From a bacterium (GTDB lineage Bacteria; UBA8248): 64,000 nt of DNA. A program made the position numbers and the translations under genes. The DNA is taken from NCBI GenBank assembly GCA_965203325.1, contig OZ241875.1, forward strand, positions 2,528,001-2,592,000. Reading direction: 5' to 3'. The notes beneath the pieces were generated by a model that saw only the letters and a list, made by a program, of their open reading frames with translations, had not been told where the DNA came from and did not search any database. Of this stretch, positions 28,186 to 60,880 are shown one piece after another (within the stretch, counting starts at the first letter, position 1; each line of letters begins with the position of its first letter).

Positions 28186-28417
28186 CGTCGATGAACGCGC
28201 GGGGGAGAACCACCTGAACACGCGGGAGGCGGCCGCCTGGCTCGGCCTCTCGCCCAAGACGCTGGAGCGCTACCGCGTGAGCGGAGAGGGACCGGATTTT
28301 CTTCGCACCGGATACCGGGTGCGCTACCTGCTCGAAGACCTCGAGAAGTGGGCCTCCGCCCGGAGGTGGACTTCCACGTCCGAGGAGAGAGCCGCCCGGA
28401 GGAGGAAGAGGCGGTAG
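28180..28417 (+). pseudogene. 3' part of excisionase-like HTH gene (copy of 58803-59040)
   Basis: HLNTREAAAWLGLSPKTLERYRVSGEGP; N-terminal domains missing. Confidence 0.8.
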
Positions 28418-28504
28418 AGGGATATTCGGGAGAAGACGGGCGTCCTGCACGCGGCGGACCTCCCGGGAACCAGGGACATGCTCACGACGAAACGCCGGAT
28501 GGCC

Positions 28505-28809
28505 TCACAGGCCGTAGCGCAGCCTCGCCATCGCGGCCACGGCCGCCGAGTGCCCCCCTCGTAGATATCCCCCAGGTACGCCGCTATCCCGGCGTCGGTC
28601 TCGGGGTTTCCCGAGCGCTCGAATCCCCTGAGCGCCGTCTCGTACACTCGCCGCGTGTTCTCAGACATCGACGCCTTCGCCAGGTCGGCGGCCGCACGGG
28701 CCGGTCGGGCCGGCCTCCTCGTCAAAGCGATGTCCTGCGTCGGGTCGGATGGTCTTGCCCCCGTCGTCATGGCGAGAAGCCAACCTTCCAGATCGGCGAC
28801 CGTGTCCAT
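28505..28809 (-). pseudogene. Internally deleted copy of the Cre-like recombinase at 57841-58773
   Basis: 5' and 3' ends of the gene joined at CGCGATGGCG (675-bp deletion) plus one G lost from a G-run. Confidence 0.85.
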
Positions 28810-28920: not shown

Positions 28921-29127
28921 GAGTCCGATAATTGCCATTATCGGAAAACATAACACCTCTGAAAGCCATGTCAAGCGCGATTTCGGGGTCCCCGGAGGGG
29001 TTTCGGGCGCCTTTTTGCGTCTTTTTTCGCTCATGTTTCGCTCATTTGCGGCCCGAATGCGCCCCGAAACGGGTTTTTCGGCGGAAAACAAGGCTTCTGG
29101 GGGCCAATAATGGCAATTAGCGGACAC
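28921..29127. promoter_or_regulatory. Candidate invertible promoter, cassette 1
   Basis: GAGTCCGATAA-TTGCCA-TTATCGGAAAA (28921-28948) and GGGGCCAATAA-TGGCAA-TTAGCGGACAC (29100-29127); spacers are reverse complements; minus-strand TTGACA-N16-TATGTT inside (28974-28947). Confidence 0.75.
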
Positions 29128-32200: not shown

Positions 32201-32603
32201 CGAGGGCGGTTATGAGGAATGGGGCGTGAGCGCCTCGGTGGCGTACGCTCCGGGCTCCGGGGGACGGGGTCTCACGCTTCGGGCGGGCTCCTCGTGGGGC
32301 GCCTCCACGAGCGGTGCGGAGCGGCTCTGGTCGCAGGCGGCGGGCCTGGCGCCTGCCGGTGCGTTCGAGCCGGGCGCCGCGGGCTTCGAGGCCGAGGCGG
32401 CCTGGGGCCTGGACGCCCCCCGGGGACTCCTGACGCCCTATACGGGCGTGGCGGTTTCGGGGAACGCGGAGACCTGGCGCGCGGGCGCGCGCTGGAAGCC
32501 CGGGGCGGCCACGGAGGTGAGCCTCGAGGCGAGCCTCACCGAACAGGCGGGCGGCGGGAGACCCGAAGGCGGCCTCCTGCTCAGAGGCTCGAAGCGGTGG
32601 TAG
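29238..32603 (+). CDS. Calx-beta repeat autotransporter/adhesin
   Basis: Extended signal peptide ending APVEAQ, repeated Calx-beta-like motifs (DDDMDEDEETFTV, GADYTAVSGTLTF), C-terminal beta-barrel ending in W. Confidence 0.85.
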   Translation: MKNIARISMLPAAAFCSAARRREVRPAGVREPASPTGSYQRSDPRPGRFRARLFGLLPVLALLVGALFLLTAAPVEAQTKTFSITERARAAEGASASLTITLSEDAPSAGVAFTVTAGFGGSSTAEAADVMSIDSPVTIPSGTRSLSIAIPLTDDDMDEDEETFTVTIATTAEGWMKEGDGKDTAVVSIDDDDNAGVNLIGVSTISNDKGPKIGHLNVYQNTPATYQVVLTSRPVADVTINVSATMWNSVSPASHTFAASSANDWREPKEFTVTAGSRIGSALILHTVTTSDPNYGTLQYSDWSHTSNKLLLDIRPPLPMPTRLTLRADRLPAEGEGAVTVTATLDNPAPWSGTTVRLTLSGTAAGEGTDYTLSSTTISIGAAQTTGTTTITVTDDSADDDDETIVLEASSGNPELTSNKLTLTIEDNDQTAQQQRTEPLTAAFERAPAAHDGTETFRFNVRFSEALGETANAPEVASFAVRGGKVKRVRKVESGLWRVRIAPKSWKDVTVTLAGGRACDEAGAVCTADGRSVSNTSTMTIGGPVRIRVEGARAKEGRDASLDFAVTLNRAAAHEVSVDYETADETATAGADYTAVSGTLTFAAGETAKTVSVPVLDDAIDEGKEVMRLLLSNPQGAFLRGVHTKARGVIRNDDPLQRMWLARFGRAAAGHVAEAIEGRLSDAAAGVVLGGHSLSGGPEREAIESRLAEALLKEREVRLGRGGEAPAPSVREVAMSDLLLASSFHMASAEKVDAGSRWSLWGRGARSSFEGVEGDLSLEGDVTTATVGFDYERARWLVGVALSRSAGDGSYKAGGACDTGCAGEVESTLTGVYPYARYRVSGTFSLWGAVGHGQGEMTLTPGGSSPVEADVAMGMAAAGARGVVLPAREAGGFELALRADVLVTNTRSDAAAGLAETEAQTSRVRLVLEGSRSLRLGEGLLTPSLEIGFRNDSGDAETGGGVEAGGSVRWTSGALTTQVRARGLLSHGEGGYEEWGVSASVAYAPGSGGRGLTLRAGSSWGASTSGAERLWSQAAGLAPAGAFEPGAAGFEAEAAWGLDAPRGLLTPYTGVAVSGNAETWRAGARWKPGAATEVSLEASLTEQAGGGRPEGGLLLRGSKRW

Positions 32604-33022: not shown

Positions 33023-34123
33023 CTATAATCGATTAGGTTTCGGTGCTGCAAAAAACCAGAGAATTTTGTCGAAATAGTCGTGAAAGGCAAAAAGCCAATA
33101 TTCAGAACGGACAAAATGATGAAACCTAGACAATGCCTCGTGGCTGTCAAAGAATGACGTAATCACACCTTTTCCAAATCCATCCACTTTGATCTGTTCA
33201 ATTTCTTGAAGTTCACATCCGATCTTGTTGCAAATCCAACTGATAGATTCATCAGAAATTTTATTTTTATCAGATAATTCTTTTAGCTTTCGCCCGCAAA
33301 TTCCTTCTTTGATATCGAAATACAGCCAAAGGCATTCCTCTGGCGGTATCTGTTCATTTTGTGAAATCAATCCATCTAATCGATCGAAGTGCCGGTATCC
33401 ATGATACGCTGCCATCTCCTTGAATAGATGATATGGTATGTAGTTCTCCAACTCTCTTCCAACAGTAGTAATTCCTATCCCGATGAAACAACTTTGACCG
33501 GATATATTTCCGCAATTCCTTTTTCTATATATAGAAATCACCTTATTCGCCGTAGCCGATTTCTTGCCATTAGGTGCCAGGCTGTCATGATCGACGACGC
33601 AGACTACAACCCTCTGCTTATCTATTTCCTGCTCAAAAATACTAGCTATGCTCGAACCGCCACCATGTATTGGATCGAATTCATAGGAAGGAACGTGGGA
33701 AAGCTTTTTCGTTTCACATAGTATTTGCTTGTAAAGCTGGATATCCGAATCGCTATCCTCAACCACAAAACTCGTACACGTGGATAAATATTTACCGTTG
33801 AGCAGCGCCCTATGACCGATGACAAAAGTTTTCTTTCCATCGAAGGAAACCGACCCATCGCCCAGCACTACATTCACGTACACACGAGCTACGCGCAACA
33901 TATCCCCTCGAACTGCATACTTTTCATGAATTGAAGTAAGGTACGTCTTATCTCGCTGTGACAAGTGAAGATTCTCAACCGCCCATTTACATAGTTCTCT
34001 ACGCGATATAAAGAAATGTCTACCGGAGCGATCAGATTCGATAAGCTGCGCAAACACATCCTCTAGTTCACCGTTTTCGGTGTCCGAAAGTTCCTCAACA
34101 GTGCTTTGCAAACGAAAAATCAT
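33023..34123 (-). CDS. Hypothetical protein with TOPRIM-like motifs
   Basis: FVVED, HGGG, VVDHD and RELENY pattern; coupled to the upstream ATPase. Confidence 0.6.
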   Translation of the reverse strand: MIFRLQSTVEELSDTENGELEDVFAQLIESDRSGRHFFISRRELCKWAVENLHLSQRDKTYLTSIHEKYAVRGDMLRVARVYVNVVLGDGSVSFDGKKTFVIGHRALLNGKYLSTCTSFVVEDSDSDIQLYKQILCETKKLSHVPSYEFDPIHGGGSSIASIFEQEIDKQRVVVCVVDHDSLAPNGKKSATANKVISIYRKRNCGNISGQSCFIGIGITTVGRELENYIPYHLFKEMAAYHGYRHFDRLDGLISQNEQIPPEECLWLYFDIKEGICGRKLKELSDKNKISDESISWICNKIGCELQEIEQIKVDGFGKGVITSFFDSHEALSRFHHFVRSEYWLFAFHDYFDKILWFFAAPKPNRL

Positions 34124-35724
34124 TAGTCAGAATAATTGAAAAAACCAAATGGCCAATCGGTCAACGCGCCCGTATCATCAAATCTCGCTAGCGAAACCAC
34201 CGTAGGTGAACTTAAATCGTCCTGAGCCGAAAATATGACAATCTGGATTTCACTCGAACTAACCTTACCTTCCTCAACGAGTTCACCCAACCGATGGATC
34301 AATGCCTCGCTATGTGTTTCAATTACTAGTCTTATTCCCGGTTGGGTATCACCATCCACAATTGTTCGGTTTGCAGCAACAAACACATCTGCTAGCTTAG
34401 CCTGATGGGCTGGGTGCAAGTGTAACTCGGGTTGTTCAATCGCAAGTGTTTGCAAACTTGACCGTCGCTGCCGAGGCATTCTTGATATAGGACTTCGGTG
34501 CTGAGCCCACCATATCATCCCAAGTACGGGCAATATTTGGGACACGCCGTATCCAGTGTCGGTCACATTTACGGACCTTTTATCTGAAAGCACTTGGACA
34601 CTGATGTGGCCAGAGGTTTCATGCACCTTAACGCCATACCCAAATATTCCCTCTACCCACTTTGAGAATCTTTCGAGTTCTCTCGGTGCCAAAGACGCTA
34701 GAAACATGGGAAAGTTTGCCCCGTTCGGGGCAATCTCTGAGACTTCGAGCTCTTGTTTGCGGTAGAAACGCTCGCTCGCCGCCCTAACAGGCTCTAAGTA
34801 CCCCACGTTTAGGAAATATTCAGTCAATTGGTCCTCAAGAATCTCCAATACTGAAAACACACGTGCCAAGCGTTGAATGGAGAATACTTGAGTTTTAAAT
34901 TTACTTTTCTTTTTGGACAAAAGATGTTGATAAATCTTCTTGAAAGTCACAGTACTGGATGTATCTTGTAATTTGCTTATTGTCGATGAATCGAAGCGAT
35001 TTTCTGAAAGAACTCTCCTTGCTTCCCTCAGTAATGTTCTATTACTCAATGCTCTGTTTGCCTGATTGCTGAAGGCATTTACCAATACCTCAGCAAGAAC
35101 ACCAGCAGGTCTTAACAGCCTGTTCGCTCCCCCTTCCTTTTCCATCGTCTTCGATATGAAACGTGGTGGAGAAAAGAGATTTCTATTGATCCTTATCAGG
35201 TTATATGTATTTGGAAGGAAGTCAGCATGAGCACCGTTAATAATAATCTTGCCGTCGGATCCTTGATGTGATCGAAAATTAAAATGAATGTCTATATCTT
35301 CATCCGGAATCTTTACTTCTATGCTGTTCAAAACAGTCGTATCTTCTATTGCGCCAATCAAATAACGTATGGCAACACACTCTACCTGAACAACCCCTCG
35401 ATGTTGGTAGTATTCATCGTGATAATATAAATTCGCACGATTTAAGCCACGCACGTCAGATATTGTAAACCGGAATGCGGCTTGGCGTTCGTTTTCATTT
35501 TCTCCGACGGCCACATTTATGTCACCAAAATCAACCAAATCACCATACCAGAGAATAGGAGCACTACTTCGTGTTTCTAGTGACTGGCGAATGAGAGGGA
35601 GTGAACGCAAGAAGGTACTTTTCCCTGCGCTGTTTCTTCCCACCAGAACCGTAATTGGGCGCAATTCAATTTCAGGGAAATCCCGTATGCGTCTTATGTT
35701 CTCAATTGCATACGCTAGTTTCAT
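34123..35724 (-). CDS. ABC-type ATPase (AAA_15/AAA_21, DUF3696-like)
   Basis: GRNSAGKS, GYGVSQILP, IEQPELHLHP, IETHSE, WPFGFF. Confidence 0.88.
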   Translation of the reverse strand: MKLAYAIENIRRIRDFPEIELRPITVLVGRNSAGKSTFLRSLPLIRQSLETRSSAPILWYGDLVDFGDINVAVGENENERQAAFRFTISDVRGLNRANLYYHDEYYQHRGVVQVECVAIRYLIGAIEDTTVLNSIEVKIPDEDIDIHFNFRSHQGSDGKIIINGAHADFLPNTYNLIRINRNLFSPPRFISKTMEKEGGANRLLRPAGVLAEVLVNAFSNQANRALSNRTLLREARRVLSENRFDSSTISKLQDTSSTVTFKKIYQHLLSKKKSKFKTQVFSIQRLARVFSVLEILEDQLTEYFLNVGYLEPVRAASERFYRKQELEVSEIAPNGANFPMFLASLAPRELERFSKWVEGIFGYGVKVHETSGHISVQVLSDKRSVNVTDTGYGVSQILPVLGMIWWAQHRSPISRMPRQRRSSLQTLAIEQPELHLHPAHQAKLADVFVAANRTIVDGDTQPGIRLVIETHSEALIHRLGELVEEGKVSSSEIQIVIFSAQDDLSSPTVVSLARFDDTGALTDWPFGFFNYSD

Positions 35725-36378: not shown

Positions 36379-39300
36379 TTAGTCTTCCCTTTTTTTACGC
36401 TGCAGCAATACAGCGTCCGCATGATGTTTGTACACGAACGGCATGTCATTCGTAAGTATGTTGTCCAACCATAGTGAATCCTCACAGTCGGTAAGTAGAT
36501 ACGGGTCTCCGGCTTCGAGGATTGCAACCAATAAACTCCAGCGTCGGTCTGGAGTAGCCATTGGGAAAGCCGCGAGAAGAGCGGCGACATTGGTTTCCCG
36601 TCGATGACGCTCAAGTGCCGCGAGCGCAGCATGCTTGACTTCGATGGCGCTGTCTTGCTCGGCGAGCCTGCCGACTGCATCCGAGATCGCTGATGTAGGC
36701 AGCCAGCCGGCAAGTTCTGCAGCTATCTTGCGTTCGGACACCAAGCCACTCATCCGCTCAACCAAGAGTTGCGAAACAACGCCAGAATCAAGCCGTCGCA
36801 ATGCCCGACCCACGGCCGGGCGAAAGGATTTCCGTTCGATGGAGACTGCAGCATCGACAAGCCGCCTCGCTGCGGACTCCGGCGCGATTCGTACGAGCAG
36901 CTTACATAACTCCCACTCAATTTTTGGGTGGAATTGGAACGCAAGCTCGATCGCCTCGACAGCTCGCATAACATCGAACTTTGCCAAACCCTCAATGGCC
37001 TTAAGCGGCTGCATTGTAGAGAAAGAACGAGCAGCAAACGCTTTGTCGAGAATTTGTTCCCTCAACGCAGCGTCACCCCCTTCGACAGCAATGTCATAGG
37101 GGCCGTCGCGCAATTCCTGTCCACGCCGACAACGTTTAACAGCTGTATCGATACTTAGCTTTCTAGTTGCAGGATTGTCATACAAGGCAGCAATTATCAG
37201 ATCCTCAAGATCATTTTGCTTCAAAGGGATCTCACTCTTCAAACAGTTCGCCAGTAAATTTGCTCCCTGGTTTCCCATACGGATCAGTACTTGCAGGCCA
37301 CATTTTGAATTCTCTTTAGTGTAGAGCAGGGAATGAGCAAGCTGTGCGAAATCATCCGAGGTATCACCAAGCGCTTGAAGTGTGGTGCAAGAAATTGCGG
37401 CAACTAGTCCCTCCTTATCAGCTTGCTTCAAGACAGAACGCACAGGTGGAATCAGATCCGCATCATCACTGAGCCAAGCAATCACCAGCGCGGTTAGCAG
37501 CAAATCCTCCGATGATTTCTCACTTTGAAGTGTTTCAAGCGTCTGCTCCGTGAGCGCTTTTGACATCGGACCTCGGTGAGCTCGAAGCTGAGCAAGATCG
37601 GGCGATACTATTTCCAAACCACTGTTATTCAGTATTTCGACCAAAGCCGTATCGGCGCCCAATGAAGCGAGTGCGGTCATCGACTGGCAGAACTCCTGAT
37701 AAAAGTGTGATTTTAAATTCTCGTCAGCATCTTGCGGCACGGGTCGGGACGCGATAGCCGTAAGCCTATTCACGATACCGTCATCGGCACGTACAGCGGC
37801 CCAATTCATACCGCCATGGCGAACCCAAAAATGCTCGGACTCCAGTTCGCGCTTGATCAGGGTGGCGATGCCATCGCCTCCCATGAGAATGAGGACACGT
37901 CGTGCATTTTCGAGGATGGTGTCGCGGGTATTACTGTTTGTGTGTAAGCGGTTGCAAGCAGCCGCTACGATCATGTTTTCCAATTCCCCGCCCGCTTCGG
38001 CTTCGAGAATGGTCAATAGCTCTAGGCGGGTAATGCGCCCAAGGAAGTCCAGCGGATGGTAGAGCCAGAGTTGGTCTCCTCCGAGTGCTCCTTGAGGATG
38101 CGTACGAAAATCATTCTCCAATGTGCGCAATATGAAACGAAGCATTGTGCCGTCCACCTCGTCTGGCCGCTCCCAGAAAAGATCTACTATGAATCGGAGT
38201 TTTGGGGGATCCGTTTCGGCGAGCTCAAGAATACGTCGGCGGGTCAGTTCCGGTTGGGCGCGCAGCAGAATCGGAAGCCAATGATTGCGAAAAACATAGA
38301 GTTCTGCATCGTCAACCTCGACAAGCCGGTCGATGGCTGCTGGCGGGTCAAGGACCGATAGGGCTGTGAGTGCCGCGCTGCTAGTGAAATCTTCGGAGCT
38401 TGACAGGTGGCGGTTCACAAAATCCAGTTTATCTCTATCTGCAAAGCGCGCGATGCAATACAGCAAGCAACGCGGCTTGTTGGCTGAAACTTTGGTCATC
38501 AATGCATACCCTGCCTCCTTCCAAATAGAAGGTGCATCTGGGTGTTCCAGCGCATTCAATAAGAATCCGAATTCAGAAAACTTTTCCTTTTTCGCATCTG
38601 CTGACAGGATACGGTCACGGAGCCATCCCGGGTCCAACTCAATTCCGGCACGTAGAGCTGTAAAACTGGTTTGATAATCACTATGCCTTGAGACATCTTT
38701 TTTCTCTTCCAATGCGTAAAGACGCTGCTGGTGGAGTTCCCAAACGCGGTCAAGATATTCTGTACTGGGCACTGCCGTAAGCATTTTTAAAGCGACGTTT
38801 TGCAAGTCATAGGAAGATTCGCTCAACAGAGAATCGATGGCTTCCTTCAACTCGCAATTTTCCTGCTGCATGAGGGATGTAAAAGCCTTACCGATGAACC
38901 CGAGCCAGTAGTCTCCGTCCGAGCCCATGGTGATTTCATTTAGTCGTTCTAAGAGAATCGGCACCACGCGCTGACCGAGAGTTGGCAGGAGATGAACATA
39001 CAGCGTCTCACCGTAGCTCCCGTATTCGCTTCTGTCCTCCATTCGCGCGATAAGCCGGCTAAGCATCCGGGAGTTCTGTTCGTCTTCCGCAAGTAACCAC
39101 AGCACATCCATGGGCACATAGTCGAGCCGGCTCGGTGCGCGTTGATCCTGTTTTCCGCGTTGGCTCGCGAGAATCTCCCCGAGAGCGTCGTCTGACAGTT
39201 CCCCGCGGTCGAATTGTTGTACCAACGACTTTGCGACCGCCCAATTCAGGAGACGGTCATGCGCGAACGCTACCTCGCCACTCTTCGTGCTTCGAAACCA

Positions 39301-40917
39301 GCCAGTGGCTACAAGTCGCGCAACGGCTTCTTCCTCGGTTAGGCCAATCTCGGGCCACTCCGGCCGTAAAAGAGGATAGAGCTTCCCTGCGAGAACATGA
39401 GCGGCAAGTGCTATCACGACTCCTTCGTCGCCGTGCCTGCCATTCGCTGCGATCCTCTGCCAAAACCGATCGAATATCTCATATTCGCTACGCGGAGCGC
39501 TTTGCACTGAACTATATGGGAGTTCAAGGAAAAGACCGGCAAGAATAGGCCTGCGCAGGAGTATCTTCAGATCTGACGGAAGTTCGGCCCAATTCCGACT
39601 GGTCCTTTTCAAGAGTGAATCAAGTTCCTGGATCGAAAAATCACCAACAGTATATTCGCAAACTGCATCGCTGTCGGTTACAGCAAGCGCCCGTGCCACT
39701 GTGGTCGGAACGGTCAATACCAGGCGAATGCCCCAATCAGTCCAATCTTGGCGGACAAGACCCCTGGCGAGATCGATGTCCTGAACGTCGTCGAGTGCGA
39801 CGACCAGCCCAGAAGTCGCCTTATGTGGCTCCAGTTCACGGAGGAAATTCGACACGGCACGGAGCGACTTTTCGGATGTTTCGCCAAGGCCTTGCTGCCA
39901 AAAATCCTGTGATGCTTGGTTCAGCAGGTCTTTACGAGTTTGGGCAGCACGTACCAAAGTGACGAAATTACGCTGCTGCCCAAGTGCTTCCAGCAATCGT
40001 CCCAACTGCCAAGTCTTGCCAACGCCACTTTCTCCCGCAATGAGCAATACAGGTTTTCCTGCGGGCCATTCGGGAACAGCTCGTACGTCTCGATCAGGCT
40101 GGTACTTAAGTCCGGCAAGACGGCGGCAAGTCAATTCACTCATGGTTTCAGGCAAAATTGCCAACCTATGCAGCCGGTCCGGGTTGAGGCCGACATCCCG
40201 GAATATGGCATCTATGGCAGAAGCGTCGAGCCGTGTTTCACCCTTGCTTAGCTTTTCAAACAGTACGCCGACCAGACGCTCCCGAATCCCACGTTCATCC
40301 CCGAGGTCGGGCGCGTAGCACCGCAAGAGCCTCTCAATTGCTGCCTCGTGCGCGCTACCACTGACGCAAAACTCCATTTCAAAACAAGACAATAGATGGA
40401 AGGTGGCAGCGCGATTCCCGACGGCCGACTGAGGAGTCCCGCGCCTTGTTACGTTGTTGATGCGATCGAAAAACTCGCGGTTGGTCGCAACAATGTCAGG
40501 GCTAATTTTTTTCTTTTCGTCATTATCAAGGTCATCAGGACCGTCAGCCGCCTTCACATCGGCAAGGAACGCCTTGAAGGTATCTAATTTGCCGGATCGG
40601 CCGTCAGTTACGAAACGGTAACGCGAATTCACCGGAAACGATGGCGGTATTGCCTTTTGGAGGTCGCACAGGACAGCTTCCATGTCGGAGAGAGACCACG
40701 TGCCGTCTGCACGGGTCTTGTATTGCTCTACAATATAAATGCCTGATGCCTCCGCACGGGCATCGCCGCCATTGCGAGGCTCCAATACCAAACATGCGTC
40801 ATCAACTACCTGACCGTCCAATTTACCCTTCAAGGTAACGCTGGACAGCCAGCCAATATGGTGAATTATCTGATAGAGAAAGCCATTGATCGCGGCTGGG
40901 CCACCAACTTGAGTCAT
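36379..40917 (-). CDS. Large STAND-like NTPase with N-terminal PD-(D/E)xK-like domain and HEAT-like C-terminus
   Basis: GFLYQ...GGD...EQYK; Walker A GESGVGKT; Walker B VVALDD; FAHD; long helical tail. Confidence 0.75.
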   Translation of the reverse strand: MTQVGGPAAINGFLYQIIHHIGWLSSVTLKGKLDGQVVDDACLVLEPRNGGDARAEASGIYIVEQYKTRADGTWSLSDMEAVLCDLQKAIPPSFPVNSRYRFVTDGRSGKLDTFKAFLADVKAADGPDDLDNDEKKKISPDIVATNREFFDRINNVTRRGTPQSAVGNRAATFHLLSCFEMEFCVSGSAHEAAIERLLRCYAPDLGDERGIRERLVGVLFEKLSKGETRLDASAIDAIFRDVGLNPDRLHRLAILPETMSELTCRRLAGLKYQPDRDVRAVPEWPAGKPVLLIAGESGVGKTWQLGRLLEALGQQRNFVTLVRAAQTRKDLLNQASQDFWQQGLGETSEKSLRAVSNFLRELEPHKATSGLVVALDDVQDIDLARGLVRQDWTDWGIRLVLTVPTTVARALAVTDSDAVCEYTVGDFSIQELDSLLKRTSRNWAELPSDLKILLRRPILAGLFLELPYSSVQSAPRSEYEIFDRFWQRIAANGRHGDEGVVIALAAHVLAGKLYPLLRPEWPEIGLTEEEAVARLVATGWFRSTKSGEVAFAHDRLLNWAVAKSLVQQFDRGELSDDALGEILASQRGKQDQRAPSRLDYVPMDVLWLLAEDEQNSRMLSRLIARMEDRSEYGSYGETLYVHLLPTLGQRVVPILLERLNEITMGSDGDYWLGFIGKAFTSLMQQENCELKEAIDSLLSESSYDLQNVALKMLTAVPSTEYLDRVWELHQQRLYALEEKKDVSRHSDYQTSFTALRAGIELDPGWLRDRILSADAKKEKFSEFGFLLNALEHPDAPSIWKEAGYALMTKVSANKPRCLLYCIARFADRDKLDFVNRHLSSSEDFTSSAALTALSVLDPPAAIDRLVEVDDAELYVFRNHWLPILLRAQPELTRRRILELAETDPPKLRFIVDLFWERPDEVDGTMLRFILRTLENDFRTHPQGALGGDQLWLYHPLDFLGRITRLELLTILEAEAGGELENMIVAAACNRLHTNSNTRDTILENARRVLILMGGDGIATLIKRELESEHFWVRHGGMNWAAVRADDGIVNRLTAIASRPVPQDADENLKSHFYQEFCQSMTALASLGADTALVEILNNSGLEIVSPDLAQLRAHRGPMSKALTEQTLETLQSEKSSEDLLLTALVIAWLSDDADLIPPVRSVLKQADKEGLVAAISCTTLQALGDTSDDFAQLAHSLLYTKENSKCGLQVLIRMGNQGANLLANCLKSEIPLKQNDLEDLIIAALYDNPATRKLSIDTAVKRCRRGQELRDGPYDIAVEGGDAALREQILDKAFAARSFSTMQPLKAIEGLAKFDVMRAVEAIELAFQFHPKIEWELCKLLVRIAPESAARRLVDAAVSIERKSFRPAVGRALRRLDSGVVSQLLVERMSGLVSERKIAAELAGWLPTSAISDAVGRLAEQDSAIEVKHAALAALERHRRETNVAALLAAFPMATPDRRWSLLVAILEAGDPYLLTDCEDSLWLDNILTNDMPFVYKHHADAVLLQRKKRED

Positions 40918-52602: not shown

Positions 52603-54750
52603 CTACTCCTGCCTGTTCGCGGCGAAGCCGCCGACCATCCGGCCCTCGTGGCCGTATTCCGCGGAGAATTGCCCGGTCACGGCCCCCGGAACGCCGCCCT
52701 CGTCGGGATTCCGGAATTTTCCGTTCCACTCCCCGCCGGCCTCGGCCGTATCCCCGCCGATGGTCCACTTCGTCTTGCGGGGCGGCAGGGCATCGAGGAA
52801 GGTTCCTAAACCCGGAACAGTGACCGCCGCGCCGACGCCGTCGCCCAGAATGTCACCATTGTCATAGATGCCCTGTTCCATCAGCTCGACGGACCAGTCC
52901 CGGGCCTCGCCGTCAGCGCCGACCTTGAACTGGTCGAGGGCGCCCGTGACCGTGCTCTCGTGGAAGTCGGCCTCCAGCACCGCCCGCGCGGTGAAGCGGC
53001 CGGACTCGTTGGCGCCGCCGGTGGTGCTGCTCGTAAGGGCGTAGAGGCCGGCCGCGCTGCCGCTGTAGCTCGCGGTCCCGCCCACGGACCTCAAGTCATT
53101 ACGCGTCTCCGCGCCATAATTTCCCCCACCTATTGCGCTTGCAATGTAGTCCCCCTCGGCCGGCTTGTAGAGCCACCAGCCGTAATAGCTGTAATGGGCC
53201 AGCGGCGCCGTCACCCGGGCGCCCGGGTCGTCGGGCTTGAAGGTCCACGCGGCGGCGGTGTGGTTGAACACATTGGCCGCACTCAGAAGGCCAAGCGTGA
53301 ATCCGGCGGTGACATCAGAAGCTCCTAGAGCGTCGGTGGGGTTGGGTTTGACGTCGAGGCGGACGGCGCAGGTGTTGCCGGCGGTGGGCGTGCAGCTGTA
53401 GGTGCCGGGCACCCCGTGGAAGCTGCCGTCGATCTTCACGGCGATGTGGTTCTCCGGCAGTTCGAACTTCTTGAACCCGGCGCGCTGGTCGAAGCTCGGG
53501 CTCTCAATCTTGTCCCGGTTCCGATCGAGTGCCACGATCGTGGAAGGCAGCACCCCGCCGGTCAGGTCATACACCTCATCGAGGGGAAGGCCCTGCTCGC
53601 GCTCTTCTTCGCGCGTGTAGACGTAGGCTTCCGCCGTGCCGCCGTCGGCGAATTCGTGCGTGTACCGCTTGCCCTCCCAGCCGCGGTTGCCGGGAACCAT
53701 GGTCTCCTTGTCTTCCGAAAGGGATTGTGGGGAACCATGGGTGGCGTCCGCCCCGGTGGTGGTTACTCCGGCGATGCGCAACGCGAAAGTGTTCCTGCCT
53801 ATTATTGCGATGCTGACATCTCCGGCCCTTGCCTGGGGCTTCAGGTCGATCCCCGCATACAGCTTCGCAGCCTCTGCCACCATCTCCGCATCCGCGGCCT
53901 TCTGCTCGTCTTCCATGGCCTTATCGAAGGCGGCTTGCGCCGTTTGGATCGGCGCCGCCGCATTGTCCGCCTCTCGCACATACGTAGCCTTTTCCGCGTC
54001 GGTCAGGTCCGCGCCATCCGCAATCGCGTCGTTCAGAGCGGTGAGGGCACTGTCGGCGGCGTCGAGCTGCGCCTGCGTTGGCGTCGAACCGAAAAGCGCC
54101 TCGAGGGCCGCCTGGAGCGCCGTGGAAGCATCCGACAGCGCCGTCCTCTGGTTCATCCGGCGCGTCGCGGTGTCGATACCGCCCTGCGCACCATCTACGG
54201 CAGCCACGGCGTCGTCGAGTTGCGTCATGTACATGGCCTTGTCTTCATCGCTCACGTCGTCCGCATCTTCCAATGCCTGCCTGAGAGCGCGGATGGCTTC
54301 GTTGGCGGCGTCAACCATCTCCTGCGTCGACAGGTCGGACGTGTCGATCATGCCGGCCGCGGCCGCCAGAGCCGTTTTCTGCGCATCGGCCCGAGCCATC
54401 GTCGCGAGCGCCGCCACGCGGGCATCGACCGCCGCCTGAAGCATCTCGCCCGCCGTGGCGGTAACGTCGTCCTTCACCGCATCGTAAGCCGCCTGGGCGG
54501 CTTCCGCCGTGGCGGCCGCCGCGATGTTCGCGAGCGCCGCATTAATCGCGACCTGTGCGGGCGTCAAGCATTCACCACCCACATATTGATTGCCCGCGGC
54601 CGTGCACGTCTCCTCCGGTGTCGGCATCGGGGGCGGTTCCTCAACTGCAGCCGTCCCGCCGCCGCCGCCGCAGCCGGCCAGCGCGATGGCGAACACGGCC
54701 GCCAGCGCGAAGGCGTAGAGCCTGGTTATCGGTTTCTCTTTGAACGTCAT
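52603..54750 (-). CDS. Surface lipoprotein with TbpB-like C-terminal barrel
   Basis: Lipobox LAGC-GGGGG, Ala-rich helical stalk, GTASYSGSAAG...MVGGFAA. Confidence 0.8.
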   Translation of the reverse strand: MTFKEKPITRLYAFALAAVFAIALAGCGGGGGTAAVEEPPPMPTPEETCTAAGNQYVGGECLTPAQVAINAALANIAAAATAEAAQAAYDAVKDDVTATAGEMLQAAVDARVAALATMARADAQKTALAAAAGMIDTSDLSTQEMVDAANEAIRALRQALEDADDVSDEDKAMYMTQLDDAVAAVDGAQGGIDTATRRMNQRTALSDASTALQAALEALFGSTPTQAQLDAADSALTALNDAIADGADLTDAEKATYVREADNAAAPIQTAQAAFDKAMEDEQKAADAEMVAEAAKLYAGIDLKPQARAGDVSIAIIGRNTFALRIAGVTTTGADATHGSPQSLSEDKETMVPGNRGWEGKRYTHEFADGGTAEAYVYTREEEREQGLPLDEVYDLTGGVLPSTIVALDRNRDKIESPSFDQRAGFKKFELPENHIAVKIDGSFHGVPGTYSCTPTAGNTCAVRLDVKPNPTDALGASDVTAGFTLGLLSAANVFNHTAAAWTFKPDDPGARVTAPLAHYSYYGWWLYKPAEGDYIASAIGGGNYGAETRNDLRSVGGTASYSGSAAGLYALTSSTTGGANESGRFTARAVLEADFHESTVTGALDQFKVGADGEARDWSVELMEQGIYDNGDILGDGVGAAVTVPGLGTFLDALPPRKTKWTIGGDTAEAGGEWNGKFRNPDEGGVPGAVTGQFSAEYGHEGRMVGGFAANRQE

Positions 54751-55116: not shown

Positions 55117-57291
55117 CTACTGCTGCTTGTTCACGCCGAAGGCGCCGACCATCTTCCCGGACGAGCCGTACTCGGTGTAGAACGTGCCGGTCCCGACCTT
55201 CGGAACCCCGCTGGCGTCCGTTTCGGTGGCAGCGGTGTCGTAGAGCGTTCCCGCCCACCAGCCGGAGGCGGCAGCGGCCGTCCCGCCGATGGTCCAGACC
55301 GTATCGTCGAGCGCAGCGCGGCCAATGACACCCGAGGGGCCAACGTCAGCTTCCTTCAGCTCGACCGACCAATCCCGGTCCATGCCATCGGCGCCCTTGA
55401 ACATGTCGATGGTGCCAGTGATCTTGTTGTCGCTGAAGTCGGCGTTAAGCGTCGCCCGCGCGGTGAAGTGGCCGGCGTCGTTCGTGCCGCCGGTCGAACT
55501 CGAGAGAGCGTACTTGCCGGCCGCGCCGCCCATGTAGGTCGCCGTGCCCTGCAAGTTGTCGAGATCGGCGGCGGCCGGGACGGCGCCCTTGTTGTCCACG
55601 AATGCGCTCGCGGTGAAGGTGTTGCCGTCCTCGGACTTGTGGATCCACCAGCCGTAGGAGGCGTAGATGGCGTCCGGCATGCCCATGACCCTGGCGTTCG
55701 GGTCGGCCGGCTTGAAGGTCCAGGTGCCGCCGGTAGCGCCGGTCCCAGTCTGAGTGAACGCATTGTCGCCATCGGCTGTCTCGCCGAGTCGGAACCCGTT
55801 TGCGGCTAGCCGGACTGCGCAGGTGCTGGCGGTCCCAGCCACGCAGTAGAAGTTGCCGGGCACCCCGTGGTAGCTGCCGGGAATGATCACCCGCTCCCTA
55901 TTCTCCGGCAATGGGTACTCCTTCGTCCCGGCAGTCAGGTCGAAGCCCGGGATGGCGACGTTCGACGTAGGATAACGAGTCGGATTGGTGGTTTGGTCGA
56001 GCGCAAGTTCACCGTCGGCTAACAGGTACTCGAACTCGTCGCTGGTATCGGCCGCGCCGAACTTCTTGCCCTGCGTCGGCTCGCCGACGTTCGAGTAGAC
56101 CATCGCCTCGTAGGTGCCGTCGCCATCGGGCTCGGCCGTGTACCTCTTGCCTGCCCAGCCATGGAGCTTGGCGACCATCGTCTTCTTGTCTTCCGACAGG
56201 GGGACGGCTGCTGTGTGCGCGGTGTCGCTGCCGTCGCCGATGCTCACCATGATGAGCGTGTCGACGAGGGATTGGCCGGGGACGCCGTTGGCGGGGTCGT
56301 CGGCAGTGTTGGCCACGTTGTAAGAGGCGGTCCGGTCATCGACGGCGAAGGTGCTTCCTTCGCGGATGTCACCCTTCGGCTCGCTGATCCCCGCATACAG
56401 CTTCGCGGCCGTGGCGGCCATGGCTGCGGCCTCTTGCATGGCGGCCATATTGTCGGCATCGTCCTTGGCGTCTTTCGCCGTCTGGATCGGCGCCGCCGCG
56501 TTGTTGGCCTCACGCTGATACGGAGCCTTCTCATCGTCGGTCAGGTCCCCGCCGCCCGCAATCGCGTCGTTCAGAGCCATGAGGGCACTGTTGGCGGCGT
56601 CGAGCTGCGCCTGCGTTGGCGTCGAACCGGAAAGCGCCGCGAGGGCCGCCTGCAATCTCATGGAAGCGCCAGACAATGCATCCATCTGGTTCATCCGGCG
56701 CGTCGCGGTGTCGATACCGCCCTGCGCCATGTTCACGGCAGCCACGGCGTCGTCGAGCTGCGACATGTACATGGCCTTGTCGGCATCGCTCACGTCGTCC
56801 GCGTCGGCCAGCGCCCCTCGAAGCCCTTCGATGGCCATGCGTGCGGCGTCAACCGCTGCCTGCGTCGACAGGTCGGACGTGTCGATCATGCCGGCCGCGT
56901 CCGCCAGAGCCATTTTCTGCGCGTCCACGCGGGCCGCCATCTCGATGGCCATGATCCGGGCATTGACCGCCGCCTGAAGCATCTCGCCCGCCGTGGCGGT
57001 AACGTCGTCCTTCACCGCATCGTAAGCCGCCTGGGCGTCTTCCGCCGTGGTGGCCGCCGCGATGTTCGCGAGCGCCGTGTTAATCGTGACCTGTGCGGGC
57101 GTCAAGCATTCACCATTCACATATTGATTGCCCGCGGCCGTGCACATCTCCTCCGGTGTCGGCATCGGGGGCGGTTCCTCTTCAACTGCAGCCGTCCCGC
57201 CGCCGCCGCCGCAACCCGCCAGCGTCAGCGCGAAGACCGCCGCCAGCGCGAAAGCGTAAAACCTGTTAATATACTTGTCTTTGAACATCAT
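55117..57291 (-). CDS. Surface lipoprotein with TbpB-like C-terminal barrel (paralog)
   Basis: Lipobox LAGC-GGGGG; GTATYMGGAAG...KMVGAFGV; N-terminal ~280 aa very similar to 52603-54750. Confidence 0.8.
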   Translation of the reverse strand: MMFKDKYINRFYAFALAAVFALTLAGCGGGGGTAAVEEEPPPMPTPEEMCTAAGNQYVNGECLTPAQVTINTALANIAAATTAEDAQAAYDAVKDDVTATAGEMLQAAVNARIMAIEMAARVDAQKMALADAAGMIDTSDLSTQAAVDAARMAIEGLRGALADADDVSDADKAMYMSQLDDAVAAVNMAQGGIDTATRRMNQMDALSGASMRLQAALAALSGSTPTQAQLDAANSALMALNDAIAGGGDLTDDEKAPYQREANNAAAPIQTAKDAKDDADNMAAMQEAAAMAATAAKLYAGISEPKGDIREGSTFAVDDRTASYNVANTADDPANGVPGQSLVDTLIMVSIGDGSDTAHTAAVPLSEDKKTMVAKLHGWAGKRYTAEPDGDGTYEAMVYSNVGEPTQGKKFGAADTSDEFEYLLADGELALDQTTNPTRYPTSNVAIPGFDLTAGTKEYPLPENRERVIIPGSYHGVPGNFYCVAGTASTCAVRLAANGFRLGETADGDNAFTQTGTGATGGTWTFKPADPNARVMGMPDAIYASYGWWIHKSEDGNTFTASAFVDNKGAVPAAADLDNLQGTATYMGGAAGKYALSSSTGGTNDAGHFTARATLNADFSDNKITGTIDMFKGADGMDRDWSVELKEADVGPSGVIGRAALDDTVWTIGGTAAAASGWWAGTLYDTAATETDASGVPKVGTGTFYTEYGSSGKMVGAFGVNKQQ

Positions 57292-57522
57292 TTAGTGAGT
57301 CCTCCTGAATACACAGTAGAAAAAGGGATTTTCCGTGAATTTCCGGCTTTCTCCGATTAACCTCCTTTCGTCAGCTTTTTTTTCGGGCCTTCACAAACTG
57401 GTGATTCGCATTTTGGGCCGCCTGAAACGCGGCGGACTTGAACCCTTTCATGCTCCGGGCCGGTAGTGAGTCTTTCCGCGAGAGGCGGATTCCTTCGGTA
57501 TGCGTCCACCTTTCCCGGCCTG

Positions 57523-57738
57523 GCCGCCGTTAATTGATGTTATCGGACTCCAGAAACCCCGTTTTCCGCCGAAAAACCCGTTTCGGGGCGCATTCGGGCC
57601 GCACATGAGCGAAACATGAGCGAAAATAGACGCAAAACGGCGCCCGAAACCCCTCTGGAGACGCCGGAATTGCGCTTGACATGGCCGTGAGAGGTGTTAT
57701 ATTTTCTGATAACATCAATTATCGGACTCCAGAAACCC
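57523..57738. promoter_or_regulatory. Candidate invertible promoter, cassette 2
   Basis: GCCGCCGTTAA-TTGATG-TTATCGGACTC (57523-57550) and TTTTCTGATAA-CATCAA-TTATCGGACTC (57702-57729); spacers are reverse complements; TTGACA (57676)-N16-TATATT (57698) with TGn extension. Confidence 0.8.
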
Positions 57739-57840
57739 GCCGTTTCGCCGGTATTCCCCTGCGAAACGGCTTTTTTTGTGGAAATTCCCCGCCGTCGTCT
57801 ATACTTGGTAATCGAGGAGGCGCTCGATCGGCCTCAGGGA

Positions 57841-58773
57841 ATGGAAACGGCCGCCGACCCGGAACAGAACATCGCTTTGACGAGGAGGCCGGCCCGACCG
57901 GCCCGTGCGGCCGCCTACCTGGCGAAGGCGTCGATGTCTGAGAACACGCGGCGAGTGTACGAGACGGCGCTCAGGAGGTTCGAGCGCTCGGGAAACCCCG
58001 AGACCGACGCCGGGATAGCGGCGTACCTGGGGGATCTCTACGAGGGGGGGCACTCGGCGGCCGTGGCCGCGATGGCGGTCGCGGCGCTTCGCTTCCGGGC
58101 GAAGCTGAACGACCGGCCCTCCCCGGTGGGGGCGGCCTCGGAGCGGGTGCTGGCCGGCTTCAGGCGCCTGGCCGCAGAGCGCGGCCGCGGCCAGGTGGCG
58201 GGGGTGCGCTGGGAGCAGGCGGACCGCGCGGCGGCGCTGGCCGAGGGGACGGGGACACTGGCCGGTCTGCGAGACGCGGCGATCGTGGCGGTGGCGAGCG
58301 ACGCCCTGCTCCGGGTGTCGGAGGTCGAGGCGCTCGACGTCGAGGACGTGGACCTGGACGAGCAGACGGTGCTGATCCGCCGCTCGAAGACCGACCAGGA
58401 GGCCGAGGGCGTCGTGCAGTTTCTGGGCGAGCCGACGGTGGCGCGCGTCCGGGCCTGGCTGGCGCGCGCGGGTCTCGGGGAGGGAGCGCTCTTCCGGGGC
58501 GTGTACAAGGGGGGACGACTTCGGCCCGGGCGCCTGACGGAGAGGAGCATCCGGAGCATCATCGCGCGGTGGGGGAAGGCCGCGGGCGTGGAGGGGCGCA
58601 TCAGCGGGCACAGCCTGCGCGTGGGGGGCGCGCAGAGCCTGGCCACGGCGGGGGCGTCGCTGGTCGAGATGCAGATTGCCGGGCGCTGGCAGTCGCCGGT
58701 CATGCCGGGGCGCTACGCGCAGGGACAACTCGCGAAACAGGGCGCGATGGCGAGGCTGCGCTACGGGCGGTGA
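57841..58773 (+). CDS. Cre-like tyrosine recombinase
   Basis: LLRVSE, RRSKTDQ, SGHSLRVG, GRW, GRYA give a complete R-K-H-R-W-Y set; no arm-binding domain; start codon uncertain. Confidence 0.9.
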   Translation: METAADPEQNIALTRRPARPARAAAYLAKASMSENTRRVYETALRRFERSGNPETDAGIAAYLGDLYEGGHSAAVAAMAVAALRFRAKLNDRPSPVGAASERVLAGFRRLAAERGRGQVAGVRWEQADRAAALAEGTGTLAGLRDAAIVAVASDALLRVSEVEALDVEDVDLDEQTVLIRRSKTDQEAEGVVQFLGEPTVARVRAWLARAGLGEGALFRGVYKGGRLRPGRLTERSIRSIIARWGKAAGVEGRISGHSLRVGGAQSLATAGASLVEMQIAGRWQSPVMPGRYAQGQLAKQGAMARLRYGR

Positions 58774-58802
58774 AGTCCGTCCGTCTTCTCCCGAATATCT
58801 CC

Positions 58803-59522
58803 CTACCGCCTCTTCTTTCTCCGGGCGGCTCTCTCCTCGGACGTGGAAGTCCACCTCCGGGCGGAGGCCCACTTCTCGAGGTCTTCGAGCAGGTAGCGCA
58901 CCCGGTATCCGATGCGAAGAAAATCCGGCCCCTCGCCGCTCACGCGGTAGCGCTCCAGCGTCTTGGGCGAGAGGCCGAGCCAGGCGGCCGCCTCCCGCGT
59001 GTTCAGGTGGTTCACCTCCGCGAGTTCATCGACGTCTCCCGCGGCCCCGGGTTCCCCGGCGGCGTCCCACGTCCCGTCGAACGGGTCGGGCAAGTCCGCG
59101 AGCCTCTCGCGTATGGCGCGGACCTCCTCTCCCGTCGCGTTGGCCGCCATCCAGGCGCGCACCCGGTCGAAGGTCTTGAGATACGGCGAGGCGCCCCGGC
59201 GCAGCCTCCCCACGAAGGAGGGATTCCCCACGGTCTCCTCGCCCAGGATCGAGACCTTGGTCCCGCTCACCGCGAGAAACGCCTCGACCTCGGCCCGCAG
59301 GAGCGGTCTCAGGGGCGGGTACCCCATGAACGCGAGCACCCGGTCCGCCGTGTCGACCCGAAGGGGCCGCCCCCGGGCGTACAGTCCCACGAAGCCGGGA
59401 ATCCCCAGCGCGCCCACCCCGAAGCGCCTCGCGCTCATCCCTCGGCGCGCGCGCCAGAGCGCAATGCTCCGGCGCAGCCGCTCGTCCAGCGGGGTGCCGG
59501 TATCGTCGTCGAACGCGGTCAT
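58803..59522 (-). CDS. DNA-binding protein: two Cro-like repeats plus C-terminal excisionase-like HTH
   Basis: Repeated G(M/T)S..(F/L)G....G.P.FV..L..G motif; LNTREAAAWLGLSPKTL. Confidence 0.75.
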   Translation of the reverse strand: MTAFDDDTGTPLDERLRRSIALWRARRGMSARRFGVGALGIPGFVGLYARGRPLRVDTADRVLAFMGYPPLRPLLRAEVEAFLAVSGTKVSILGEETVGNPSFVGRLRRGASPYLKTFDRVRAWMAANATGEEVRAIRERLADLPDPFDGTWDAAGEPGAAGDVDELAEVNHLNTREAAAWLGLSPKTLERYRVSGEGPDFLRIGYRVRYLLEDLEKWASARRWTSTSEERAARRKKRR

Positions 59523-59759
59523 GGCGCGCGAACATAAGGAAAGTGCGAGCGCCCGTTCAATCGTTGTTTCTAGCGCGGAAGGTACACCCGGGAAGAGTCC
59601 GCGCCTGCGTCGGTGCGCGGATCGCTCATCGGTTCAGCCTGAAATCAAGGGGGTTTTCCCGAAAACGAGGGTCGCCGGAGAACGTGCAGCGAGACGCTGC
59701 GGAAAAAAAGGAAGGACGCCGCCCCCCGGGCGAGAGCTCGAAAGCCTCTTTCGTTCACG

Positions 59760-59885
59760 CCGCGGCGCTCTGTTTCGCGAGTCGTCCCTGCGCATGACCG
59801 GCGATTGGCGGCGCCCGGCGAGTTGCATCTCGACCGGAGAAGCCCCTGCCATGGCAAGGCGCTGCGCGCTGCCCGTCCGCAGGGC
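59760..59885 (-). pseudogene. Degenerate third remnant of the recombinase C-terminus
   Basis: LRTGSAQRLAMAGASPVEMQLAGRRQSPVM vs LRVGGAQSLATAGASLVEMQIAGRWQSPVM. Confidence 0.75.
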
Positions 59886-60880
59886 GAAACGGCGCCGATT
59901 CCCTTGTTTCATTCGTTTTTATCGCATCGTATGCTGATGTTCCGGGTCGTCCGCCAAATACAATACGGCCAAGCCGAAATAGGCGGACATTCCTTCGTGG
60001 ATTGTATGCCAACGGCCCGGATTCTGGAGGAAATAAAAAATATTCGGCCGGGTAGGCGGGGCGCAGCAATGCCTCCGCCTACCCGGCCTGCCACCCCATC
60101 GTAATCGTTCAACCAAGCCGTGACGGATTAGGTCTCAGAGCTAAACAGAGACGAGTTGACGGTAACCTCTACGAGAAGAAAGTCGATGTCGGAATGCTAT
60201 CCATGAACCGAAATTGCCCAAATATTCTGCGGACTTGGGTGGTACCGAAGAATGAGGCCGGACCAGCTACGTTCAGACAGCCACCGAACTACCGCTATTT
60301 GGGTGCTTCCATCACGGCTTGGATGAACACTTACGAGCGCTCACGGACGCTCGCCCGCCGTGATGCGCTGGAGTTTGAATGAGTCCGCTTTCGGCTTGAT
60401 TACGGGTTGGGGAAGGCGAATTCCGGCAGATATGGACGAGACATATATCCGACATGATATCAATAGGTTATACGGATTCCATCGCCGATGAGAACGGCCC
60501 GGAATATCCGATGAGGCTAATTTATCGAAAAACCCCGTCAATTTATCGATATTTATCGAATTTTTCACATATTATTTTTCACATTTTTCGGGTTCTGCGC
60601 CTCGCCGGAGCGACCACCCGGATCCTTCGATCCGCGCCGCCGCCTGAAAAACCCCAGGGGGCCATCTTGGGAAACTCGATGACGGCCCGTGCGGCCGTCC
60701 GCGCGCGGGCCTTCACGGCGCCCGCATCGAAGGCAAGCGGCATCCCGCCGCCATCATGGGACGGGATGCCCGAAAAGTCGAATTTCGAGTGAAGCCGCCC
60801 CGGCCCGCAGATTTCTCCGGGGGCGCCCGGCTTGTTCCGCTCCCCGGCGGAGGGGCGGTTCCCGCTTCCTGCGGGGAGCG

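Follow-up and report, generated by a model that had tools for sequence, protein, structure and literature searches.

In a 64,000-nucleotide stretch of a bacterial genome (GenBank assembly GCA_965203325.1, contig OZ241875.1, forward-strand positions 2,528,001 to 2,592,000; GTDB lineage UBA8248), hereafter called the window and numbered from its own first letter, two tandem lipoprotein genes and the gene for a Cre-like tyrosine recombinase are separated by a short segment that carries a putative promoter between two inverted recombination sites. We conclude that this locus is very probably a promoter inversion switch (inverton), one of a set that serves two families of surface or secreted proteins. 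Established in silico are the sites themselves, the promoter motif, the occurrence of both orientations among paralogs and relatives, and the retention of the catalytic residues in the recombinase. The switch and the genes on either side of it, together referred to as copy A, comprise the following features:

52603-54750, minus strand: cargo gene 2, a tandem paralogous lipoprotein of 715 aa with 53% identity to the product of gene 1 over its full length
55117-57291, minus strand: cargo gene 1, a 724-aa lipoprotein whose signal peptide ends in L-A-G-C, followed by a G-run
57459-57522, unstranded: conserved leader block on the cargo side, outside the invertible segment and at the left edge of the shared module
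57523-57550, plus strand: site 1 (arm 57523-57533, spacer 57534-57539, arm 57540-57550)
57540-57712, unstranded: invertible inner segment between the spacers, with inverted counterparts in paralogs and relatives
57605-57626, plus strand: 11-nt tandem repeat inside the invertible segment, from the alignment of cassettes
57676-57703, plus strand: putative promoter TTGACA-16-TATATT with a TG extension, 11 of 12 consensus matches, pointing to the recombinase side
57702-57729, plus strand: site 2 (arm 57702-57712, spacer 57713-57718, arm 57719-57729)
57739-57777, plus strand: terminator-like hairpin (57739-57770) and run of seven Ts (T7, 57771-57777), which separate the switch from the recombinase gene
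57841-58773, plus strand: intact Cre-like tyrosine recombinase of 310 aa with a match to Pfam Phage_integrase (PF00589)

The 6-bp spacers of site 1 and site 2 are exact reverse complements of each other, and both sites have a TAA-N6-TTA core. An earlier note on this DNA had described two palindromic 11-6-11 sites with reverse-complementary spacers; both the sites and the exact spacer match were found again, with the 11-nt arms proving to be imperfect palindromes (7/11, read by eye). A repeat search detected the site pair as a 28-nt inverted repeat with 82% complementarity, together with a direct repeat (57540-57571 / 57719-57750) that includes the right arm and in which this arm and the nine bases after it form a perfect 20-nt match (at 57540 and 57719). 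Allowing at most one mismatch, the core pattern matched the window eight times (four sites, each on both strands) when 1.37 matches were expected, and eight or more were reached in none of 100 shuffles. All of these matches fall within two cassettes, copy A and a second one described below as copy B. The 11-nt tandem repeat inside the segment occurs in one or two copies in the cassette alignment, resulting in a site-to-site spacing of 168 or 179 bp, and is at most a candidate binding site. Sites, recombinase gene and flanking DNA belong to a shared module of ~2.65 kb (from ~57459 to ~60110) that is present in multiple copies in the genome, and homology to the cassettes of the other cargo family begins at 57459-57471.

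The genome consists of a single contig of 4.39 Mb (60.4% G+C), and a blastn search across it, as the earlier note had called for, revealed 16 paralogous cassettes. Their spacers are exactly reverse-complementary in 15 of the 16, with eight different spacers in use. The promoter faces the recombinase side in 13 cassettes; the remaining three, at genome positions 2078219, 2672522 and 3869705, contain an inverted inner segment with breakpoints exactly at the spacers. In these three, the inner arms correspond exactly to those of the unflipped copies, exchanged and reverse-complemented, and the recombinase-proximal site is a long palindrome, as expected from inverting copy A. The flipped paralogs thereby back the earlier proposal that the promoter of copy A, once inverted, would face the lipoprotein genes starting at 57291. 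Flipped and unflipped copies have spacer classes in common in both cargo families, and at least two separate inversion events must therefore have taken place in this genome. Across 15 aligned cassettes, the inner segment has a mean column identity of 87% and the -35 block of the promoter is invariant (15/15), and the most variable columns of the alignment are the last three spacer positions.

The second cassette of the window, copy B, stands in front of a different type of cargo:

28324-28809, minus strand: recombinase remnant with a 684-bp internal deletion (catalytic domain gone) and a G-run one base shorter
28921-29127, minus strand: copy B cassette, whose promoter points to the recombinase remnant; site 2 occupies 28921-28948 and site 1 occupies 29100-29127
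29238-32603, plus strand: cargo gene for a secreted protein of 1121 aa with Calx-beta repeats

The spacers of copy B differ from those of copy A and are again exact reverse complements, and its cargo protein matches Pfam Calx-beta at 3.2e-29 over three stretches. The sole cassette of the genome with differing spacers is 3371718 (L065:603-810), where the two are separated by one mismatch. Its left part is similar to the cassette at 1029704 and its right part to copy B. Based on this composition, it looks like a hybrid formed by exchange within the conserved inner segment, and we predict that it is locked.

The matching of spacers extends beyond this genome. In the closest relative genome (G012), all 15 cassettes have exact spacers, and 14 of them face the recombinase and one faces the cargo. 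Among 53 recombinase-related loci, 15 have a site pair that satisfies the strict pattern, eight from the G012 isolate and seven from other genomes, the latter all with exact spacers; inner segments are flipped at L016 and L045/L082 (G012). When all cassettes are counted once, 37 of 38 spacer pairs are exact and 17 distinct spacers are represented, spacer covariation being expressed here as counts. Homologous cassettes without matched spacers, which the earlier note had named as evidence against a switch, thus amount to one in 38. A looser repeat search found comparable pairs upstream of more distant recombinases at L006, L007, L009, L013, L015 and L027-L029, the last three being Latescibacterota-labelled loci. 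These loci have a CCGATAA half-site in common, and their central bases differ from locus to locus. Comparison of G012 with the window revealed no case of one locus in two states, the cargo flanks being too divergent (79-95%, partial lengths) for orthology.

It is extremely unlikely that the inversions arose independently of the recombinase, by homologous recombination between the inverted repeats. The repeats do have the orientation that this requires; however, the common inverted stretch amounts to only ~28 nt at 82%, the breakpoints are located at the spacers, which covary as in the crossover region of a tyrosine recombinase, and every lineage has a linked recombinase gene.

The recombinase gene of copy A, previously annotated as intact and Cre-like, was again found to be intact. 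Its product matches Phage_integrase over residues 140-294 with 68.9 bits (cut-off 27.1; E 6e-19), and its best matches in the PDB, at E 4e-13 to 1.5e-10, are 16 Cre chains and, in 17th place, the engineered Tre. Similarity to Cre spans residues 91-306, leaving the N-terminal 90 residues unmatched. In the alignment to Cre (7rhz_B), the LLRxxE, RxKT, GHSxRVG and GxW columns as well as the final Y are all retained; these contain the R, K, H, R, W and Y that we take to be the catalytic residues of Cre. As a separate observation, contigs of the sequencing runs X2, X3 and X5 have 37 extra letters in the N-terminal part of the recombinase gene (57854-57864), and copy B has a similar extra stretch at the corresponding place, so the paralogs differ by an N-terminal indel.

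Downstream of the recombinase gene, the module contains a gene for a helix-turn-helix (HTH) protein and a recombinase fragment:

58803-59522, minus strand: HTH_17 protein of 239 aa, convergent with the recombinase gene and with an RdfS/excisionase-like C-terminus, from Pfam and PDB matches
59758-59883, minus strand: inverted fragment of the recombinase C-terminus within the shared module, detected as inverted repeats I1 and I2

The HTH protein matches Pfam HTH_17 with 33.3 bits (cut-off 27; E 5.9e-8), and in the PDB it is closest to RdfS, a recombination directionality factor (9.4e-9, residues 172-223). A role as directionality factor had been suggested before. Despite the RdfS-like C-terminus, the linkage of this gene to the switch is not constant: it has 11 near-full copies in the genome (92-100% identity) and is absent from five of the 16 cassettes, two of which have an intact recombinase. 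Among the 53 recombinase-related loci, it was present in five, all from the G012 isolate, and absent from the 44 non-G012 loci, some of which are short. This co-occurrence pattern argues against an obligatory role in setting the direction of the recombinase, and the suggestion was not upheld. The HTH gene is flanked by the 3' end of the recombinase gene (58614-58752) and by the frame-broken inverted copy at 59758-59883, which are complementary over 107 nt at 77% and 36 nt at 86%.

A sigma-70-like motif scan re-found, at 57676-57703 on the plus strand, the TTGACA-N16-TATATT promoter facing the recombinase that had been noted before. Two promoter-like sites with a common -35 were found in 57200-57900, compared to 0.2 expected in shuffles, and on the cargo strand of the same interval the scan found no promoter-like site. 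Lying inside the segment, the putative promoter, as called from its motif, faces a gene in one orientation only. We infer recombinase catalysis, transcription start, termination, an ON/OFF effect on the cargo and action in trans, which would combine as follows. The Cre-family tyrosine recombinase would pair the two core sites and exchange strands inside the 6-bp spacers, and the ~179-bp segment between the sites would flip because the asymmetric spacers stand in inverted orientation. In the present state, the promoter would fire to the recombinase side, with the transcript probably stopping at the hairpin and T7, and, with no separate sigma-70-like promoter in 57200-57900, the lipoprotein genes would be OFF. 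Once the segment is inverted, the -10 box would adjoin site 1 and transcription would start in or near its arm, so that the transcript would run through the leader (57459-57522) into the lipoprotein gene or genes and turn them ON. The leader was also considered as a structured RNA and rejected in this role: its consensus fold has seven pairs and essentially no covariation. An Rfam search of 57200-57900 gave no match.

The region between switch and recombinase gene bears on a different use of the same promoter. Folding of the 83-nt stretch 57708-57790 gives -31.8 kcal/mol (z -5.87); the hairpin by itself, which is G+C-rich, has 10+2 bp and begins 29 nt past the predicted transcription start region, gives -20.0 kcal/mol (z -4.8). 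Hairpins of this region were folded for each sequence separately and differ in sequence among cassettes; the T-run is present in 29 of 29 cassettes, adjoined by a comparably strong hairpin in 17. Every aligned cassette also retains the block 3' of the T-run, at the end of which stands a TATACT-like box. Read by eye, this stretch suggests a weak promoter of the recombinase's own, and the promoter scan made no call there. The earlier note proposed a self-regulating phase-variation or latch module. In such a latch, the promoter in its present orientation would also drive its own recombinase, so that recombinase is made in the OFF state only and orientation feeds back on inversion. In favor of this, 13 of the 16 cassettes have the promoter directed to the recombinase, the scan called no canonical promoter between the T-run and the recombinase start codon, and the hairpin is a weak one in 12 of 29 cassettes, L057 and L058 with their intact recombinases among them. 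Coupling of recombinase expression to orientation is a known idea for fimE, Chu and Blomfield having reportedly described an orientational control in 2007. At the window locus, however, a -20 kcal/mol hairpin and T7 intervene between promoter and recombinase gene, the conserved stretch with the TATACT-like box suggests a separate source of recombinase transcripts, and in 10 of the 16 cassettes there is no working recombinase gene to regulate. We consider such a latch rather unlikely and favor a promoter that is, in the present state of the inverton, probably largely insulated from the recombinase gene.

Full-length recombinase genes are present in only six of the 16 cassettes. An identical 684-bp deletion, which removes the catalytic domain, is common to seven cassettes, among them copy B, and joins two copies of a 9-nt repeat (58069-58077 / 58743-58751 in the intact gene of copy A). 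The length of this deletion is a multiple of three, and an N-terminal mini open reading frame is possible where the G-run is intact. Because only six cassettes keep an intact gene, the recombinases most likely act in trans on all switches, as judged from the sequences. The flipped cassette 3869705 is one of the seven with the 684-bp deletion, and the flipped G012 cassette L045/L082, whose spacer class is that of the unflipped copy B, contains only a recombinase fragment matching query residues 24-69. These two flipped cassettes carry decayed recombinase genes and, if the deletion is ancestral to such copies, the recombinase that inverted them must have come from another cassette.

The same decay raises the question of whether the cassettes flipped in the past and the window locus has since become a frozen relic that no longer switches. 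No flipped joint in the run contigs belongs to this locus, many recombinase genes are decayed, and cassette 3371718 already has a mismatched spacer pair. Against this, the window locus has an intact recombinase gene with its catalytic columns kept, a perfect spacer pair and an invariant promoter, and 37 of 38 matched pairs over 17 spacers would be hard to keep without ongoing recombination or selection. A frozen relic is improbable in our view.

For the orientation at the window's own locus, we aligned contigs (Logan) of the runs X1, X2, X3 and X5 to 56900-58300; these contigs are short, the longest listed being 291 nt. A single opposite-strand joint, 57545/57708, was found in one contig each of X1 (depth 13.3) and X2 (depth 27.1), with five mismatches and one gap in X1 and four mismatches and one gap in X2. 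Exactly five mismatches and one gap also separate 57708-57799 from paralog 2078219, a cassette that the assembly shows in the flipped state. The joint contigs carry the mismatch pattern of this paralog and are therefore uninformative on the window locus.

Several points weigh against the inverton as described here. Both orientations were not seen at the window locus in the short run contigs, the sole inversion joint belonging to paralog 2078219. Thirteen of the 16 cassettes are in one state, which is compatible with rare switching, and the paralogs could have flipped long ago. Promoter, transcription start and terminator are predicted solely from motifs and folding, and a strong terminator-like hairpin is present in just 17 of 29 cassettes. 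Finally, gene conversion following a flip could have distributed the shared deletion among the cassettes, and the argument for action in trans is weaker for it.

On the cargo side, a large gene with a signal peptide diverges from site 1 in all 16 cassettes, nine of them encoding members of the Calx-beta family and seven encoding lipoproteins. Cargo proteins have conserved C-terminal and variable N-terminal parts. A signal peptide ending in C, the lipobox rule, is an established criterion for lipoproteins, and both tandem lipoproteins of copy A have an L-A-G-C lipobox. For the lipoproteins of copy A, Pfam gave nothing above cut-off; their C-termini matched TbpB_B_D below threshold (E 0.024 and 0.098), and for residues 430-724 of the gene 1 product the neighbors by ESM features include TbpB_B_D-bearing clusters (0.92-0.94). 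The genome encodes one Slam homologue (SlipAM, PF04575; 1776843-1777712, minus strand), which scored above cut-off at 95.5 bits, and a SlipAM match was present in none of 14 control genomes. Because of the TbpB_B_D-like C-terminal leads and the Slam homologue, surface exposure of the lipoproteins is likely. Together with the seven TbpB-like lipoprotein loci, the Slam homologue also hints at a Slam-type surface lipoprotein pathway in this lineage, which is labelled Nitrospinota.

Cassette DNA was detected in 14 of 41 genomes searched, this genome included, and in 12 of 22 other genomes of the same genus. Relatives of the recombinase with 41-78% identity are encoded in metagenome-assembled genomes (MAGs) labelled as Binatia, Entotheonella, Tectimicrobiota, Dehalococcoidia, Poribacteria, Latescibacterota and others, many of which are presumably sponge symbionts. 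Sponge metagenomes are among the 24 runs, all in the form of Logan contigs, that were listed as containing this DNA: run X3, one of these metagenomes, covers 30 of 30 bins of 56900-58300, and 24 of its 82 contigs have at least 99% identity. Scanning metagenomes with the invariant promoter block returned one match, L068, which looks unrelated, and no site pair was found at this locus.

This distribution, in which MAGs with the labels of other phyla encode relatives of the recombinase (72-78% identity) and a multi-copy 2.65-kb module fronts two unrelated cargo families, would also fit a mobile element whose attachment sites or ends are the two sites, inversion being a by-product rather than regulation. 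Yet the inverted sites enclose only the promoter segment and not the recombinase gene, there is no third site at the far end of the module, and the distance from site 1 to the divergent cargo gene is always of a fixed class. A mobile element without a regulatory role is accordingly a very improbable explanation. An integron was considered as well and rejected, there being no further core sites in or between the cargo genes and all matches in the window falling in the two switch cassettes.

Elsewhere in the window, a ~300-bp repeat (60101-60403) with 29-nt terminal inverted repeats (60099-60127 / 60308-60336) has four other copies in the genome and resembles a miniature inverted-repeat transposable element. 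A ~50-bp dispersed repeat (60519-60567) occurs at ~25 other places of the genome. A gene pair on the minus strand (33023-35724), encoding a 533-aa AAA_15/AAA_21 ATPase (7e-22) and a 366-aa protein without a Pfam match, looks defence-like, and an open reading frame of 1512 aa occupies 36379-40917 on the minus strand.

The inverton set suggests a role in coat variation: an uncultured lineage appears to maintain 16 switches, the majority in the OFF state, for large surface or secreted proteins of two families, and such variation may be aimed at host phagocytosis or at phages. Beyond this, we put forward a more tentative idea, which we regard as possible without holding it to be probable, namely that the cassettes act as natural 'orthogonal lox sites'. 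A few shared recombinases would run 15-16 independent switches, with spacers matched within each switch and diversified between switches so that the chromosome is not scrambled, and the module would move in front of different surface genes and across the phyla of sponge symbionts. If true, this would provide uncultured symbionts with a combinatorial repertoire of surface coats. The 17 naturally matched spacer pairs and the one natural mismatch also constitute a natural experiment on the spacer specificity of Cre-like recombinases, and the matched pairs could help in building orthogonal recombination sites.

Promoter-inversion phase variation is well studied in gut bacteria and pathogens. Large surveys of invertons exist as well (for example PMC11602134), and a term search of the main text of this survey found mention of neither sponges nor Nitrospinota. 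A full-text search of the literature found no paper on promoter-inversion switches in sponge symbionts, the matches listed concerning Bacteroides and a phage system. The earlier note had regarded the architecture as not described. This has to be narrowed, as the combination of an invertible promoter and a neighboring tyrosine recombinase gene is already known from the fim switch, Bacteroides and Clostridioides difficile. What is unusual here is the duplicated 2.65-kb module with near-invariant arms and promoter, hypervariable matched spacers and widespread loss of the recombinase in cis.

In the fim switch of Escherichia coli, an invertible promoter element is acted upon by the tyrosine recombinases FimB and FimE (PMC2845655). 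Copy A resembles this switch (fimS) in having a short invertible segment with the promoter for a surface structure, short inverted repeats and adjacent tyrosine recombinase coding capacity. It differs in that there is one Cre-like recombinase gene, transcribed away from the switch, the comparison being one of layout and not of FimB/FimE sequence; furthermore, the sites are lox/dif-like with a 6-bp asymmetric spacer, and there are 16 paralogous switches per genome and not one. In Bacteroides, tyrosine recombinases of the Tsr type reportedly lie beside invertible promoters of outer-surface protein genes (Weinacht and colleagues, 2004). As in the genome studied here, the arrangement recurs at several loci, each with a tyrosine recombinase gene and an invertible promoter that precedes outer-surface genes. 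In contrast to Bacteroides, the cassettes described here belong to another phylum and another recombinase lineage, have common arms and a common inner segment with differing spacers, and have lost most of their recombinases.

The recombinase RecV of C. difficile serves several sites. It is a tyrosine recombinase that inverts switches elsewhere in the genome, in trans (PMC7446863, PMC5386303). RecV switches have unrelated repeats and no duplicated module, unlike the cassettes of this genome, for which action in trans is proposed from the pattern of recombinase loss. Cre is the best solved relative of the recombinase, and its loxP sites likewise consist of two inverted arms around an asymmetric spacer. 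In Cre/loxP, the spacers of partner sites must be identical, and inverted sites give inversion. By the same logic, the differing spacers of the cassettes would keep the switches from recombining with each other. In place of the 13-8-13 layout of loxP, the sites here have a 6-bp spacer and strong conservation over a half-site of ~7 bp, and the match to Cre is limited to residues 91-306. Whereas Cre is associated with plasmid or prophage resolution, the natural role of its relative here would be the switching of genes.

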